Virus genome (UHGV): UHGV-0149281
Reading direction: 5' to 3' (one strand)
From: a virus
DNA length: 37,393 bases
Position 1 is the first letter of the stretch, and each line of letters begins with the position of its first letter. Positions 13,667 through 20,480 of the stretch are shown piece by piece. Below the pieces are notes generated by a model. That model did no database searches and had not been told where the DNA came from. It saw only the letters and a list, made by a program, of their open reading frames with translations. The position numbers and the translations under genes are program-made.

Positions 13667-14332
13667 ATGCGCTATTACGAAAGAATTGATGGCAGCAAAT
13701 ACCGAAATATTTGGGTAGTTGGCGATCTGCACGGATGCTACACGAACCTGATGAAAAAACTGGAGACGATAGGATTCGACACCAAAAAAGACCTGCTTAT
13801 CTCGGTGGGCGATTTGGTTGATCGCGGTACAGAGAACGTCGAATGCCTGGAATTAATCACATTCCCCTGGTTCCGAGCTGTACGTGGAAACCATGAGCAA
13901 ATGATGATTGATGGCTTATCAGAGCGTGGAAACGTCAATCACTGGCTGCTTAATGGCGGTGGCTGGTTCTTTAATCTCGATTACGACAAAGAAATTCTGG
14001 CTAAAGCTCTTGCCCATAAAGCAGATGAACTTCCGTTAATCATTGAACTGGTGAGCAAAGGTAAAAAATATGTCATCTGCCACGCCGATTATCCTTGTGA
14101 CGAATACGAGTTTGGAAAGCCAGTTGATCATCAGCAGGTAATCTGGAACCGCGAACGAATCAGCAACTCACAAGACGGGATCGTAAAAGAAATCAAAGGA
14201 GCGGACACGTTCATCTTTGGTCATACGCCAGCAGTGAAACCACTCAAGTTTGCCAACCAGATGTATATCGATACCGGCGCAGTGTTCTGCGGAAACCTCA
14301 CATTGATTCAGGTACAGGGAGAAGGCGCATGA
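13667..14332 (+). CDS. ninI: NinI Ser/Thr protein phosphatase
   Basis: 221 aa; metallophosphatase motifs GDLHG, GDLVDRG, GNHE matching the lambda phosphatase. Confidence 0.9.
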
Positions 14333-14952
14333 GACTCGAAAGCGTAGCTAAATTTCATTCGCCAAAAAGCCCGATGATGAGCGACTCACCACGGGCTACG
14401 GCTTCTGACTCTCTTTCCGGTACTGATGTGATGGCTGCAATGGGGATGGCGCAATCACAAGCCGGATTCGGAATGGCTGCATTCTGCGGTAAGCATGAAC
14501 TCAGCCAGAACGACAAACAAAAGGCTATCAACTATCTGATGCAATTTGCACACAAGGTATCGGGGAAATACCGTGGCGTGGCAAAGCTTGAAGGAAATAC
14601 TAAGGCAAAGGTACTGCAAGTGCTCGCAACATTCGCTTATGCGGATTATTGCCGTAGTGCCGCGACGCCGGGCGCAAGATGCAGAGATTGCCACGGTACA
14701 GGCCGTGCGGTTGATATAGCAAAAACAGAGCAGTGGGGGAGAGTTGTCGAGAAAGAGTGCGGAAGATGCAAAGGCGTCGGTTATTCAAGGATGCCAGCAA
14801 GCGCCGCATATCGCGCTGTAACGATGCTAATACCAAACCTTACCCAACCTACCTGGTCACGCACTGTTAAGCCGCTGTATGACGCTCTGGTTGTGCAATG
14901 CCACAAAGAAGAGTCAATCGCAGACAACATTTTGAATGCGGTCACACGTTAG
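14329..14952 (+). CDS. Q: late antiterminator Q
   Basis: 207 aa with the zinc-binding CRDCHGTG...CGRCKG region; matches lambda Q. Confidence 0.9.
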
Positions 14953-14993
14953 CAGCATGATTGCCACGGATGGTAACATATTAACGGCATGAT

Positions 14994-15023
14994 ATTGACT
15001 TTTTGAATAAAGTTGGGTAAATT
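14994..15023 (+). promoter_or_regulatory. late promoter pR' (with qut region)
   Basis: TTGACT -35, 17-bp spacer, TAAATT -10, as in lambda pR'. Confidence 0.75.
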
Positions 15024-15057
15024 TGACCCAACGATGGATAAATGCACTCGTTAAATA

Positions 15058-15090
15058 AAGCCCTGAGTTAATAGCTCGGGGCTTTTTGCG
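15058..15090 (+). terminator. tR' terminator
   Basis: GCCCTGAG...CTCGGGGC hairpin followed by TTTTT. Confidence 0.65.
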
Positions 15091-15385
15091 TTTTAATCAC
15101 GACCTTTCTGAAAGCACATCAAACCAAATACCAGACAGACAAAAATAATCACCTTATCCGCTGTGGCTACGGTGCGGTGTGCTTTGCATAAAAGAAAACC
15201 AGCTCAATGGCTGGCTTCGTGAAAGCGGGTGGCAAGAAGTTGCGCTAACAACCTCCTGCCGTTTTGCCCGTGCATATCGGTCACGAACAAATCTGATTAC
15301 TAAACACAGTAGCCTGGATTTGTTCTATCAGTAATCGACCTTATTCCTAATTAAATAGAGCAAATCCCCTTATTGGGGGTAAGAC

Positions 15386-15709
15386 ATGAAGATGCCAGAA
15401 AAACATGACCTGTTAGCCGCCATTCTCGCGGCAAAGGAACAAGGCATCGGGGCAATCCTTGCGTTTGCAATGGCGTACCTTCGCGGCAGATATAATGGCG
15501 GTGCGTTTACAAAAACAGTAATCGACGCAACGATGTGCGCCATTATCGCCTGGTTCATTCGTGACCTTCTCGACTTCGCCGGACTAAGTAGCAATCTCGC
15601 TTATATAACGAGCGTGTTCATCGGCTACATCGGCACTGACTCGATTGGTTCGCTTATCAAACGCTTCGCTGCTAAAAAAGCCGGAGTAGAAGATGGTGGA
15701 AATCAATAA
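15386..15709 (+). CDS. S: holin S (class I, dual-start motif)
   Basis: [41 protein letters not shown] matches lambda S. Confidence 0.95.
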
Positions 15710-16169
15710 TCAACGTAAGGCGTTCCTCGATATGCTGGCGTGGTCGGAGGGAACTGATAACGGACGGCAGAAAACCAGAAATCATGGTTATGACGTCATT
15801 GTAGGCGGAGAGCTATTCACTGATTACTCTGATCACCCTCGCAAACTTGTCACGCTAAACCCAAAACTCAAATCAACAGCCGCCGGGCGTTACCAGCTTC
15901 TTTCCCGTTGGTGGGATGCCTATCGTAAGCAGCTTGGCCTGAAAGACTTCTCTCCGAAAAGCCAGGACGCTGTGGCACTGCAACAGATTAAAGAGCGTGG
16001 CGCTTTACCGATGATTGACCGCGGTGATATTCGTCAGGCTATCGACCGTTGCAGCAATATCTGGGCTTCACTTCCGGGGGCTGGTTATGGTCAGTTCGAG
16101 CATAAGGCTGACAGCCTGATTGCAAAATTCAAAGAAGCTGGCGGAACGGTCAGAGAGATTGAGGTATGA
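15693..16169 (+). CDS. R: endolysin R (lytic transglycosylase)
   Basis: [51 protein letters not shown] matches lambda R. Confidence 0.95.
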
Positions 16170-16603
16170 GCAGAGTAACCGCGATTATCTCCGCTCTGGT
16201 TATCTGCATCATCGTCTGCCTGTCGTGGGCGGTCAATCATTACCGGGATAACGCCATGACCTACAAAGAGCAGCGCGATAAGGCCGCATCCACAGTCGCT
16301 GACATGCAGAAGCGTCAACGTGATGTAGCAGAACTCGACGCCAGATACACAAAGGAGCTTGCTGATGCTAACGCGACTATCGAAAGTCTCCGTGCTGATG
16401 TTTCTGCTGGTCGTAAGCGCCTGCAAGTCGCCGCCACCTGTGCAAAGTCAACGACCGGAGCCAGCAGCATGGGCGATGGAGAAAGCCCAAGACTTACAGC
16501 AGATGCTGAACTCAATTATTACCGTCTCCGAAGTGGAATCGACAAGATAACCGCGCAGGTTAACTACCTGCAGGAGTACATCAGGACGCAATGCCTTCGA
16601 TGA
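16166..16603 (+). CDS. Rz: i-spanin Rz
   Basis: N-terminal TM ([30 protein letters not shown]) matches lambda Rz; the central region diverges (mosaic). Confidence 0.9.
16365..16550 (+). CDS. Rz1: o-spanin Rz1 lipoprotein embedded in Rz (+1 frame)
   Basis: Lipobox LLVVSAC followed by a proline-rich segment; AAGGAG RBS; entirely inside Rz. Confidence 0.8.
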
Positions 16604-16779
16604 TAGCGATAATTTTACTCATCATCCTTCACATCTGGCTCTGTAGACAGGGTGGTGATCACTTCTGGAGTAAATCCAGATTAAACATCTCATTGCTGAT
16701 GCTTGATATTGAGCATCTGGCGCGCAGTAAGGGGCTGCGTTGAGATAAGAGCCAGTTCATTACAAATACCAGGATTTAG

Positions 16780-16802
16780 CCTCGCATTCGCGGGGTTTTT
16801 TA
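16780..16802 (+). terminator. rho-independent terminator after the lysis cassette
   Basis: RNA CCUCGC-AUUC-GCGGGG (one U-G wobble) followed by UUUUUUAUU. Confidence 0.55.
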
Positions 16803-16825
16803 TTCCCAACTCCATAGGTAATTTT

Positions 16826-17305
16826 ATGACCCAGCATATTGGCGTAAAACTGATTAACGCCTTTCCGATGACGAGACAGGCATATAACGATTTTCGTGGC
16901 TGGCAGCTTCCTGCCGGAGAAAACGGCGAGGACGAAGGCTATCTGGTTGAATATCTGGATGGCGGAAAACCTAACACCGATCGCTTTGATGGCTACGTTA
17001 GCTGGAGTCCAAAAGAAGTATTCGAAAAGGCTTATCGTCCGGTATCAGGGTTAAGTTTCGGCCTTGCCATGGAAGCGTTAAAACAGGGCAAAAGTTTGCA
17101 GCGGGCAGGATGGAATGGGAAAGACCAGTTTGTTTATCTCGTGAAAGGGGAAAAATTAGCGTCTGCGTTGGGTTATGGCTTTGGCGAATATGTTGGCGAG
17201 CCAACTTTCAATGACACGCTTGTATTGAAAAACTCACAGAACCGCCTTGCTACATGGGTTCCATCCATTGGCGACCTGATGGCTGAAGACTGGCAAATCA
17301 TTTAA
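16826..17305 (+). CDS. hypothetical protein with C-terminal DUF2829-like domain (possible Tad2-like nucleotide sponge)
   Basis: 159 aa from ATG 16826; motif FGLAMEALKQGKSLQRAGWNGKDQFVYL resembles the DUF2829 signature as I remember it; not verified. Confidence 0.6.
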   Translation: MTQHIGVKLINAFPMTRQAYNDFRGWQLPAGENGEDEGYLVEYLDGGKPNTDRFDGYVSWSPKEVFEKAYRPVSGLSFGLAMEALKQGKSLQRAGWNGKDQFVYLVKGEKLASALGYGFGEYVGEPTFNDTLVLKNSQNRLATWVPSIGDLMAEDWQII

Positions 17306-17608
17306 CCATGTAGGCATTACAAAGCCTATCTACGGGTGGGCTTGATAATGAAACCGGAGTTAATTTCTGGCCACTAATTAACGGCAGTACAGCGAAACAA
17401 CCCAAGCCAGTAAGTGGGGAAATAACACTGGCAGCCACTGAAAGATGAACCTCCAGCCTTATGGCAAAAAAGATTCTTTGTGGTGGCGGACTGATGGAAA
17501 GACATCGGTTATTGCAGAAACCATTCAATGAGTGGTCTCGACAATGGCTTATACCCTACACGGGATAACTTAACTGATATCCCTTTTAACGGATAAACGG
17601 AGCCAACA

Positions 17609-17851
17609 ATGGCAGAGATTATTCCCATGACTGAAGAACAGAAATTCCAGTTAGAGATTTACAAACTGGTCATGAACCAGAACGCAGCAGCAGAAGAAGC
17701 ATTTCAGTTCATTGGTACTGACGAGCTGAAGCTTGAGCTATTTAAAATTCACTTCCAGTCAGGCGGCGCTAATTCAGATATCACGACCCGTACTATCGAA
17801 GCGGTGCGTAAATCGAAGGAGGCGTTAGACCTGTTCACCGCTGGAGTGTGA
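17609..17851 (+). CDS. hypothetical acidic protein (80 aa)
   Basis: ATG 17609 with GGAG RBS; stop abuts the next gene start. Confidence 0.55.
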   Translation: MAEIIPMTEEQKFQLEIYKLVMNQNAAAEEAFQFIGTDELKLELFKIHFQSGGANSDITTRTIEAVRKSKEALDLFTAGV

Positions 17852-17852
17852 T

Positions 17853-18242
17853 ATGGCTAAGGCCAAATGGCACAAACTCCCGGCGTTCACCATTCCGCTG
17901 TTTCAAAGTGCACACGTCTACCTCGCAACAACCAGAGAACAGTTTCAGCACGCTGATAAATTCCTTGGCGGCAGCGGGGATGAGAAGCCATTCAATCTTG
18001 GGCTTGCAAGCAACTATGAAAACACTGATACGGGTGAGCGATGCTATCTGATTGGAGTATTCGATCAGCAGATCGCTACGCTCGTTCATGAGTGCGCCCA
18101 CGTCTGCTTTTACGTTTGCTCTGATGTCGGCGTGACGACAAGGCCTGAAGATGCCAACGAGACGTACTGTTACATGCTGGACAGGATGGTTAATCACTTC
18201 CTGCCATTCATTCAGGAGAAACAAGATGTATCACTGGAATAA
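17853..18242 (+). CDS. hypothetical protein with HExxH motif (putative zinc metallopeptidase)
   Basis: 129 aa; LVHECAHVCF contains HExxH within a predicted helix, with additional downstream Glu/Asp/His. Confidence 0.6.
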   Translation: MAKAKWHKLPAFTIPLFQSAHVYLATTREQFQHADKFLGGSGDEKPFNLGLASNYENTDTGERCYLIGVFDQQIATLVHECAHVCFYVCSDVGVTTRPEDANETYCYMLDRMVNHFLPFIQEKQDVSLE

Positions 18243-18420
18243 TCAATCCCCTTATTGCCAATGCCAACGCTGCCCGTGCTGCGGGAAGATTGTTAACCAA
18301 TTTACTGGCAACAATTTCTTCAAGACTGGTTATGGATATGGTGTTGCGGGTAGCGTTAATTGCTCTGGGGCTGCTGCTGAAACGACATCAAACACAGGCA
18401 AGCAGGAAGGAGCTAAGTAA
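18226..18420 (+). CDS. small Cys-rich protein (64 aa), possible zinc ribbon
   Basis: AGGAG RBS 9 nt upstream; CQCQRCPCCGK motif; an alternative overlapping ORF at 18290-18490 is hydrophobic. Confidence 0.35.
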   Translation: MYHWNNQSPYCQCQRCPCCGKIVNQFTGNNFFKTGYGYGVAGSVNCSGAAAETTSNTGKQEGAK

Positions 18421-18514
18421 TGGTAATCAAAGTTTGTTCAGGCTCTCAGGGCTTCGACAACCCATCCAAATTCCGCGAAGAGTGGGATAAGCAAACAGAA
18501 GGGAAATAATCAAT

Positions 18515-19003
18515 ATGGCAGCACCAAAGGGCAACCGATTTTGGGAGGCCCGCAGCAGTCATGGGCGAAATCCTAAATTCGAATCGCCTGAGGCGCTGTG
18601 GGCTGCTTGTTGTGAATACTTCGAGTGGGCTGATGATAACCCGCTATGGGAGGGTAAGGTATTTTCATATCAGGGAAAAATAATTAAGGCTAATGTCCCT
18701 AAGATGCGAGCCATGACTATTTCAGGATTGTGTACCTTCCTTGATATCACCAGGCAAACATGGGGAACCTTCCGGTCAATGGAAGGTTTTTCTGACGTCA
18801 CATCACGAGCGGAAGACATCATCTACGACCAGAAATTCTCTGGCGCAGCCGCTGACCTTCTCAACGCTAACATCATCGCCCGTGATTTGGGCCTCAAAGA
18901 GCAGTCGCAAGTTGAAGACGTGACACCTGATAAGGGAGATCGCGATAAGCGGCGCTCTCGTATCAAGGAGCTATTCAACCGTGGAACTGGACGCGATTCT
19001 TGA
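18515..19003 (+). CDS. terminase small subunit (P22 gp3-like)
   Basis: 162 aa, the length of P22 gp3; position immediately upstream of the large terminase. Confidence 0.85.
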
Positions 19004-20480
19004 TAACCTGAGCGACGAAGAGCAAATCGAATTGCTCGAGCTACTCGAAGAAGAAGAGAACTACCGGAACACACACCTGCTATATGAATTTACGCCATAC
19101 AGCAAACAGCGTGAGTTCATCGACGCCGGGCATGACTATCCAGAGCGCTGTTTTATGGCTGGTAACCAGCTTGGTAAGTCATTTACTGGTGCTGCTGAAG
19201 TCGCGTTTCACCTTACCGGGCGTTATCCGGGCACAAAAGGCTATCCTGCTGATGGTAAATATGGTGGGGAGTGGAAAGGTAAGCGTTTCTATGAGCCTGT
19301 TGTCTTCTGGATTGGTGGCGAGACAAACGAGACTGTAACCAAAACGACTCAACGCATCCTGTGCGGTCGTATCGAAGAGAATGATGAGCCAGGCTACGGT
19401 TCCATACCTAAAGAAGACATCATTAGCTGGAAGAAGTCTCCTTTCTTTCCGAACCTTGTTGATCATCTTCTGGTTAAGCATCACACGGCTGATGGCGTTG
19501 AAGATGGCATTTCAATCTGCTACTTCAAACCATACTCGCAAGGCCGCGCTCGCTGGCAGGGTGACACAATCCACGGCGTGTGGTTTGACGAAGAGCCACC
19601 ATACAGCATTTATGGCGAAGGGCTTACCCGTACCAACAAATACGGGCAATTCTCAATTCTGACGTTTACCCCGCTGATGGGGATGTCTGACGTTGTTACC
19701 AAGTTCCTGAAGAATCCCAGCAAGTCTCAGAAAGTGGTCAACATGACCATCTATGACGCTGAGCACTACACCGACGAGCAGAAAGAGCAAATCATCGCAT
19801 CCTATCCCGAGCATGAGAGAGAGGCGCGTGCTCGCGGTATTCCTACGATGGGTAGTGGTCGAATCTTCCAGATACCGGAAGAGACGATTAAGTGTCAGCC
19901 GTTCGAGTGTCCTGATCACTTCTACGTAATTGGCGGGATGGATTTCGGATGGGATCACCCGCAGGCGCAGGTTCAGCTTTGGTGGGATAAGGACGCAGAC
20001 ACAATCTACGTTTCACGCGTGTGGAAGGCGAAAGAAAAAACAGCCGTTCAGGCGTGGGGAGCCGTTAAATCATGGGCGCATAAAGTGCCAACTGCATGGC
20101 CTCATGACGGAAACCAGCATGAGAAGGGCGGCGGTGAGCAGCTCAAAGGGCAGTATGCGGACGCTGGATTTATGATGTTGCAGGAGCATGCGACATGGCC
20201 TGATGGCGGTAACGCTGTTGAGCCTGGCATCACTGAATTGCGAGACATGATTCTCGACGGTCGCTTCAAAGTATTCAACACCTGTGAGCCATTCTTTGAG
20301 GAGTTCCGCCTCTATCACCGTGATGAAAACGGGAAAATCGTCAAGCTTAACGACGACGTGCTATCCGCCGTTCGCTATGCATACATGATGCGCCGCTTCG
20401 CAAAAATGATGCGCGACATCAAAAAGCCAAAAGAGAAAAAGATACCAGCCCCAATCAGGCCCATCGCACGGAGAACTTAA
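18981..20480 (+). CDS. terminase large subunit (P22 gp2-like)
   Basis: 499 aa; Walker A-like NQLGKS; sequence matches remembered P22 gp2. Confidence 0.95.

Follow-up and report, generated by a model that had tools for sequence, protein, structure and literature searches.

A Tad2-family gene in a three-slot accessory region of a P22-like Escherichia coli prophage

Tad2 of phage SPO1 (Gp34.65; structures 8SME/8SMF/8SMG and 8WJE) contacts glycocyclic ADP-ribose (gcADPR) directly through W25, N26, W73 and D79 (bioRxiv 10.1101/2023.05.01.538930). Further described systems with a bearing on the present locus are the Acb4 anti-CBASS sponge family (PF13876; PMC11722364; bioRxiv 2025.07.12.664507), which includes Sf6 gene 66 and SPO1 Acb4, the RyR Tad protein of Pectobacterium phage CB1 (gp68), and an "anti-signalling hotspot" of N4-like phages (bioRxiv 10.64898/2026.06.04.730250). 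Nearest in genomic position is Kapi1_043 of phage vB_EcoP_Kapi1; a transcriptome study reports that in lysogens no other Kapi1 gene reaches its expression level in any condition, and proposes that its product is Tad2-like (PMC12922286, 2026). Here we analyze UHGV virus genome UHGV-0149281, a stretch of 37,393 nucleotides called the window below, which is a near-complete genome of a P22-like (Lederbergvirus-type) phage and an E. coli prophage. Our subject is the region between its lysis and terminase genes, and above all a 159-amino-acid (159-aa) protein encoded there that joins an N-terminal domain (N-domain) to a C-terminal Tad2 (DUF2829) domain.

The region is an accessory segment of Lederbergvirus phages, possibly of moron type, extending from the lysis genes to the terminase genes. 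We catalogued 88 such loci (80 IMG/VR loci anchored on DUF2560, together with reference phages and the window) and found three variable cargo slots, A to C, set apart by conserved linkers: the small gene orf50, a spacer of ~300 bp and the DUF2560 gene. The window carries the Tad2 gene in slot A and a gene for a 129-aa protein with an HExxH motif in slot C. We consider it probable, at about 0.75, that the whole is an exchangeable accessory region in which a Tad2-family sponge in slot A silences Thoeris, joined to the N-domain as a module, with a zincin-like protein in slot C. The Tad2 gene itself was foreshadowed by the Kapi1 paper (PMC12922286) and by database names; what we add is the three-slot map of Tad2 and Acb4 genes and the lead offered by the N-domain.

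The Tad2 domain and its ligand

As judged from its sequence, the C-terminal domain is a bona fide member of the Tad2 family. Residues 77–159 match the Pfam profile PF11195 ("Tad2-like") at 78.3 bits against a cutoff of 25 (E = 6.4e-22, profile positions 2–73 of 73), and phmmer comparison with all Protein Data Bank (PDB) chains places SPO1 Tad2 (8sme/8wje) first at E = 3e-26 and ModTad2 at E = 2e-18, with SptTad2 and HgmTad2/AcrIIA7 matched more weakly. An earlier sequence-only reading of this DNA had assigned a motif in the open reading frame (ORF) to DUF2829 and Tad2; the motif is present, and the profile and structure-database matches confirm the assignment. The alignment with SPO1 Tad2 is gap-free over 85 residues at 48% identity (44% for ModTad2), and the protein has the Tad2 fold, an N-terminal helix followed by an antiparallel sheet with helical loops. 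The four gcADPR-contacting residues of SPO1 Tad2 correspond to W96, N97, W144 and D150, which together with S147 (SPO1 S76) are invariant in 48/48 homologues. SPO1 Tad2 and the window protein also share a short beta2-beta3 insert. They differ in that the window protein adds a 74-residue N-terminal domain and replaces T65, D67, H71 and T78, and in that the window phage is temperate and its host Gram-negative. The exact 159-aa protein occurs in at least 1000 public E. coli contigs under the names "DUF2829 domain-containing" and "Thoeris anti-defense 2-like."

By analogy with the structures of SPO1, Hgm and Mod Tad2, the protein would assemble as a tetramer with inter-protomer pockets formed by W96, N97, W144 and D150. 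These pockets would bury an ADP-ribose-derived signal made by the Thoeris TIR protein, most likely 3′ cyclic ADP-ribose (3′cADPR; 1′′-3′ gcADPR), so that with the signal sequestered the Thoeris effector would stay silent and the phage would replicate. We infer the oligomeric state, the ligand, the inhibition of defense and the timing of expression alike.

Several observations weigh against this account. Members of the Tad2 family act on type I, II and IV Thoeris, on the cyclic-oligonucleotide-based antiphage signaling system (CBASS) and on the pyrimidine cyclase system for antiphage resistance (Pycsar) (bioRxiv 2025.08.24.671296), and family membership therefore does not fix the ligand. Because homologues act on such varied systems, it matters that the adenine-side and water-coordinating residues of the window protein differ from those of SPO1 Tad2 (T65N, D67Q, H71A and T78G). 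The Kapi1 host is without a Thoeris system (PMC12922286). A promoter scan of the + strand over 16400–18700 found no sigma-70-like promoter. Finally, much of the slot cargo across the 88 loci (Rha, KilA-N, GIY-YIG, Dec) has no obvious role in anti-defense, so that the term "anti-defense island" fits only part of it.

Besides the window gene, slot A holds Tad2 alleles of 173 aa in Kapi1 (locus L002, 2722–3243) and of 166 aa in phage Huey (L003, 2722–3222). The three are mosaic within the gene: their DNA is near-identical in codons 1 to ~99 and in the last ~10 codons, while the segments between these shared ends look unrelated, differ in length and include both the beta2-beta3 insert and the adenine-side residues. 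Kapi1_043 shares with the window gene its slot, flanks, terminator and an identical N-terminal stretch of ~100 residues. Over residues ~100–150 it has a longer sequence that has diverged from the window version, and identity over the whole protein is 70%; in slot C, where the window has the HExxH gene, Kapi1 has a gene of 59 aa.

Such exchange would suit a sponge for some signal other than 3′cADPR, for example histidine-ADP-ribose (His-ADPR) of type II Thoeris, N7-cADPR of type IV, or the cyclic nucleotides of CBASS or Pycsar, with the 159-, 166- and 173-aa alleles then differing in ligand range. Homologues that inhibit Thoeris II and IV, CBASS and Pycsar give this idea precedent, and the Kapi1 and Huey alleles, which keep an identical N-terminal half while replacing residues ~100–150, have longer beta2-beta3 inserts, in the region where HgmTad2 binds cyclic dinucleotides. 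At the variable positions of the pocket, moreover, the window protein agrees at L134 and A142 with ModTad2, which binds His-ADPR, and resembles neither ModTad2 nor SPO1 Tad2 at N136, Q138 and G149. However, the insert of the window allele is short, as in SPO1 Tad2, and the allele is closer overall to SPO1 Tad2 than to ModTad2 (48% versus 44%); SPO1 Tad2 itself did not bind any other cyclic nucleotide with which it was tested. We thus regard a different ligand as rather unlikely for the window protein and retain 3′cADPR as the likeliest.

Automatic annotation of phage Huey suggests a different function, in that its CDS0064 and CDS0066 are labeled "anti-CRISPR protein," and AcrIIA7 (8kbi, 9kzr) is indeed a DUF2829 protein that the 159-aa protein matches by sequence. 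This AcrIIA7-like reading is largely refuted and in our judgment very improbable: the anti-Cas9 activity of AcrIIA7/HgmTad2 was not reproducible, the protein binds gcADPR and cyclic dinucleotides instead, and the second of the two Huey genes so labeled is a member of PF13876 (Acb4). E. coli, moreover, is not known to have a type II-A CRISPR-Cas system, which counts against an anti-CRISPR role.

The N-terminal domain and its partners

The N-domain is better conserved than the Tad2 domain that it precedes: across 28 diverse sequences 20 positions do not vary, and many of these hold aromatic or charged residues. Searching 1.84 billion representatives with a profile of the domain returned 2552 proteins at E ≤ 1e-3, of which 1260 reach E ≤ 1e-10. 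Among the best 149 of the 2552, the partner domains were Tad2 (53), Sequestin PF21825 (38), Acb4 (12), the Acb2/Tad1 hairpin (1) and WDGH (1); one protein in this set (P0353) also has AP2 and HNH_3 domains. Fusions occur in both domain orders and include triple fusions such as Acb4-Ndom-Sequestin. The N-domain is present in 137 isolated phage genomes, and it also stands alone: the 95-aa slot-C protein of sibling phages (21/88 loci) is a free-standing N-domain (phrog_872 N-part, E = 1e-9). The N-domain is a separate, widely shared module that travels with at least four unrelated sponge families.

Three described systems place the module in context. RyR Tad (gp68) has a homologous N-domain (hhalign probability 96%, E = 2.6e-9) followed, as in the window protein, by a domain of a sponge, here one that sequesters gcADPR; it differs in that this C-terminal domain is an RyR repeat (PF02026) and not Tad2, and in that several residues that never vary among the Tad2-fused N-domains are missing from its own. 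Phage N4 gp49 (160 aa) has the same N-domain and Tad2 architecture as the window protein (hhalign E = 4e-29; PF11195 E = 8e-24) and adjoins the Acb4-family gp48, an arrangement shared with P22-like phages such as Huey. The hotspot of N4-like phages likewise collects sponge genes as the P22-like region does, although N4 belongs to an unrelated lytic family (Schitoviridae) and its hotspot lies beside the virion RNA polymerase rather than between lysis and terminase genes. (In EF056009, the N4 record, "gp48" is the PF13876 protein and "gp49" the N-domain–Tad2 protein [L095, 509–1362], so the gene numbering does not match the Pfam name "N4 Gp49/Sf6 gene 66.") Acb4, the third, is fused to the N-domain in other phages and occupies slot B in 24/88 siblings, unlike in the window, where slot B is empty.

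What the N-domain does is a matter on which we can offer only a tentative proposal. It may be the key novelty of the locus, either as an independent anti-defense module (which would soak up another signal or block a sensor or effector) or as a helper of sponges that alters their assembly or evades sponge-sensing systems such as Panoptes. Its abundance (2552 representatives), its recurrent sponge partners in varied order and in triple fusions, its homology to the N-domain of RyR Tad gp68, the lone 95-aa copies and the many invariant aromatic and charged residues all point this way, and the same guilt-by-fusion logic lay behind the discovery of Sequestin (bioRxiv 2025.07.12.664507). On the other side, gp68_N alone showed no apparent activity against type I Thoeris in the single reported test, Pfam, PDB and PADLOC yield no match that gives a mechanism, and the domain could be a passive solubility or linker module. 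On balance we find the proposal possible yet somewhat doubtful. Its widest form, in which the N-domain is a new and widespread anti-defense module (a sponge for another signal, or a helper recruited by the major sponge families) and the post-lysis region an anti-signaling hot spot like that of N4-like phages, we think still less likely. The literature that could be searched barely mentions these fusions, and we found in it no paper on a systematic association of this domain with sponge families.

Other identities for the module were also considered. Residues 1–74 have no profile or fold match to Sequestin (PF21825), Lockin or Acb5, and Lockin and Acb5 were rejected on their published descriptions as identities for either the N-domain or the HExxH protein.

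Anatomy of the accessory region

Features of the region and their coordinates are collected in Table 1. The wider window encodes a CI-type repressor, O-like and primase-helicase replication genes, NinB, Q, a lambda-type lysis cassette, a P22-type terminase, a P22 antirepressor and a head-binding tailspike. Matches to PF03245 and PF16677 identify Rz and the small terminase subunit as the boundaries, where the sequence-only reading had put them, and its description of an accessory island was well chosen, given the three-slot mosaic seen across the 88 loci. Its statement that the segment is absent from P22 was wrong. Between Rz1 and gene 3, P22 has rha, orf25, orf80 (DUF2560, E = 1e-43) and orf59c, and thus shares the framework, including DUF2560; the cargo alone differs. 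At the left end, orf50 overlaps the Rz stop and is kept as the framework of slot A in 50/88 loci, its exact protein recurring in ~1000 contigs. G+C content (44–51%) shows no signature of foreign DNA, PADLOC matches no protein of the region other than a chance match for a Cys-rich ORF, and ARAGORN finds no tRNA in the window. Kapi1 and E. coli CAVP773 have tRNA-Asn and tRNA-Thr between Q and the holin gene (window counterpart, 14952–15386).

Two anti-defense families recur at the locus, Tad2 in slot A (7/88) and Acb4 in slot B (24/88), and they occur together in 2/88 loci. The cargo combination of the window is unique among the 88. In slot C, the 95-aa protein mostly stands alongside an hkbN/orf59c-like gene (19 loci). 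We propose that cargo genes in the three slots, which the conserved linkers separate, are swapped by recombination. One locus has an HslV-family peptidase-like gene in slot C (L055, 2745–3233; phrog_1040, E = 4e-37), where the window has its HExxH protein. A prophage of Paramixta manurensis (L094, 1177–1821) encodes an AcrIF11-like ADP-ribosyltransferase (PF26151) with an adjacent helix-turn-helix gene between the Q antiterminator and holin genes, which is another site of anti-defense cargo in the late region of a lambdoid prophage.

Table 1. Features of the accessory region, with positions in the window, and contents of its cargo slots.
Feature	Position	Strand	Details
Rz	16166–16603		PF03245, E = 1e-36; left boundary
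orf50 (Sf6 gene 65 family)	16591..16743	+	phrog_11822, E = 2e-37; small, hydrophobic N-terminus
Slot A	after orf50/Rz		Rha 33, KilA-N 7, GIY-YIG 4, N-domain+Tad2 7 (/88 loci); rest empty or other
Slot A, further cargo			KilA-N/Bro-like or antirepressor-like, 10/88 loci, named by eye without a profile run
CATTACAAA, left copy	16758..16766	+	from alignment with the empty site of E. coli CAVP773
Intrinsic-terminator-like hairpin AGCCUCGC/GCGGGGUU and U-run	16778..16803	+	stem 16778–16797
159-aa ORF	16826–17305	+	two domains
N-domain, residues 1–74	16826..17047	+	highly conserved family without a Pfam model
Tad2 (DUF2829) domain, residues 75–159 and stop codon	17048..17305	+	PF11195
Spacer	17306..17608	+	303 bp, without a convincing gene
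CATTACAAA, right copy	17315..17323	+	part of a conserved stem-loop
35-codon ORF (MAKKILCGGGLMERHRLLQ...)	17461–17568		within the spacer
Slot B	17500/17501		insertion point within the spacer; PF13876 gene (Sf6 gp66) 24, DUF551 5, phrog_5425 5 (/88 loci)
DUF2560 gene, 80 aa (P22 orf80, HK620 hkbM, Sf6 gp67)	17609..17851	+	PF10834, 147.7 bits, E = 1e-43
Slot C	DUF2560 gene to small terminase gene (terS)		95-aa protein 21, HExxH gene 13, Dec decoration gene 3, HslV-like peptidase 1 (/88 loci)
129-aa HExxH protein	17853..18242	+	slot-C cargo; phrog_1365, E = 2e-37
Cys-rich 63-aa ORF	18227–18420	+	open frame with a good Shine-Dalgarno sequence
Linker to the terminase gene	18243..18514	+	272 bp; holds small ORFs
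29-aa ORF	18420–18509	+	called by some annotators; thin evidence
Small terminase subunit (P22 gp3 type)	18515..19003	+	PF16677, E = 8e-31; phrog_606, E = 4.5e-71; right boundary

The slot-A cassette of the window is 557 bp long and consists of a terminator hairpin and one gene, bracketed by CATTACAAA repeats. E. coli CAVP773 represents the empty slot, in which orf50 is followed directly by the spacer with a single copy of CATTACAAA. The intrinsic terminator that had been proposed ahead of the gene is supported by a hairpin at 16778–16797 (8 pairs, free energy −14 kcal/mol, z = −2.9) with a T-run after the stem, and phage epsilon34 has a Rho-independent terminator annotated at the homologous site. 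Where the orf50 framework is present, this hairpin stands ahead of each kind of slot-A cargo (Rha, KilA-N, GIY-YIG and Tad2), and cassettes diverge in sequence straight after the U-run, while empty sites are without the hairpin, one locus (L071) having the hairpin without cargo. To the right of the gene, a stem-loop of the form CATTA..AAGCCTATC-TACG-GGTGGGCTT..TAATG resembles the terminator hairpin, and its pairs at alignment columns 14–49 are invariant or wobble-compatible in 18 sequences. Both CATTACAAA repeats are thus followed by a similar hairpin (AGCCTCGC..GCGGGGCT in 16758–16803 and AGCCTATC..GGTGGGCT in 17315–17349), which suggests that a terminator-like element was duplicated at the cassette borders. 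A self-contained moron would have its own promoter and terminator on either side of the cargo gene; here the terminator hairpin lies upstream and not downstream of the gene, and the second hairpin, after the gene, is without a U-run. A search by eye for a promoter around the hairpin gave only weak 7/12 matches, and we claim none.

The ~300-bp stretch that follows is indeed free of any convincing gene. Its predicted minimum free energy of −93.9 kcal/mol compares with −73.4 ± 4.6 kcal/mol for shuffled sequences (z = −4.45). Across 18 homologous sequences 0/77 pairs are compensatory, with wobble-compatible changes only, and Rfam finds nothing in the spacer (14000–19500 searched at E ≤ 1; a chance snoU85 match alone, outside the region). 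Spacer identity is 92–99%, no higher than that of the flanking genes. We read the spacer as a recombination linker, with an RNA role possible. In many siblings the slot-B insertion point falls inside the 35-codon ORF, and in ST64T (L089, 1749–2105) a 36-nt deletion fuses this ORF in frame to the DUF2560 homologue, giving orf118. The DUF2560 gene itself is conserved framework, its product having the same Pfam match as P22 orf80, and its predicted coupling to the HExxH gene holds in the form of a TGA-t-ATG junction. Literature searches on DUF2560, Orf129 and hkbM returned unrelated papers only.

In the 129-aa protein, HECAH comprises residues 79–83 (18087–18101) and is followed by N102-E103 (18156–18161). 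The protein has 206 homologues, every named one from Enterobacterales. H79, E80, H83, N102 and E103 are invariant. In an AlphaFold model (predicted local distance difference test [pLDDT] score 86, predicted template modeling [pTM] score 0.82) it has a four-stranded sheet, a helix bearing the HExxH motif (74–91) and a second long helix (103–127) that is opened by N102/E103, 20 residues past H83. A gap of 20 residues from HExxH to N-E is the thermolysin-type (gluzincin) spacing. Foldseek comparison of the model with viral models (BFVD) gives 30 small phage proteins at E ≤ 1e-3, a few of which have names, namely SprT-like, PolyVal metallopeptidase, Metalloprotease and IrrE; model topology and neighbors alike place the motif in a metalloprotease-like fold, the fold class of small phage zincins. 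phmmer and profile searches against PDB, PADLOC and NCBIfam returned nothing significant, and the protein does not belong at the sequence level to SprT, M78 or any Pfam peptidase family. The model thus supports a predicted minimal zincin-like metalloprotein that is dispensable cargo.

Homologues at the same genome position include Orf129 of phages ST64T, L, ST104 and epsilon34 (gp70). The Salmonella phages differ from the window in that the Dec decoration gene comes next in place of the linker. Right after Orf129, ST64Tp50 of ST64T (L089) and gp71 of epsilon34 (L006) are named "head decoration protein," and their cluster matches phrog_3018; for phage L (AY795968) only the Orf129 match was seen. 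Genes for virion accessory proteins are thus among the cargo that slot C can hold. The HExxH gene again lies between lysis and terminase genes in Pantoea, Paramixta and another type of E. coli prophage, and in Pantoea prophages (L091/L092, 4001–4617) it sits directly upstream of DUF2560, the reverse of the window order, tightly coupled before the terminase genes. Coupling in reversed order may mean that the two genes are connected in function.

This constancy of position invites another interpretation, namely that the protein is not a peptidase, its motif being structural or binding metal for other chemistry (for example of the alpha-ketoglutarate-dependent aKG-HExxH hydroxylase type), and the gene acting in packaging or another late function and not in host conflict. 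In four genera the gene always comes immediately ahead of the terminase genes, whether or not DUF2560 is present and whichever of the two is first. Sequence searches link the protein to no peptidase family, and there is a weak subthreshold match to TIGR04267 mod_HExxH (18 bits against a cutoff of 40). Against it stand the gluzincin topology of the model (sheet, HExxH helix, 20-residue gap, helix opening with the invariant N-E) and the metallopeptidases that make up the named structural neighbors in BFVD, and presence in only 13/88 sibling loci marks the gene as dispensable, which argues against a core role in packaging. We judge this interpretation unlikely and continue to treat the protein as zincin-like cargo.

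The small ORFs noted between this gene and the terminase genes exist as open frames, but the Cys-rich one shows no sign of being a gene. Its product is absent from 15 billion predicted proteins, all ~7 substitutions among 10 related loci are nonsynonymous in an alignment judged by eye, and no counterpart follows the HExxH genes of other genera. The small ORFs of the linker are probably not genes.

Biological significance

Tad2 sponges have so far been studied mostly in lytic Bacillus phages, gut-metagenome phages and N4-like phages; the window places a close relative in a very common lineage of temperate E. coli phages. The Tad2 slot neighbors the slot that holds Acb4 in siblings, which opens the system to tractable genetics in P22, Sf6, HK620 and Kapi1. 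It also raises the questions of how temperate phages trade anti-signaling genes and of whether sponges expressed from a prophage disarm the immunity of their own host. A single uncharacterized domain that turns up again and again in fusions with four or five unrelated sponge families offers a concrete lead that can be tested cheaply. If the N-domain and its region do prove to be an anti-defense module and an anti-signaling hot spot, the stand-alone 95-aa N-domain protein, the Orf129 mini-zincin, hkbN/orf59c and possibly DUF2560 would become candidate immune antagonists, and such candidates would sit in the classic model phages P22, Sf6, HK620 and N4.

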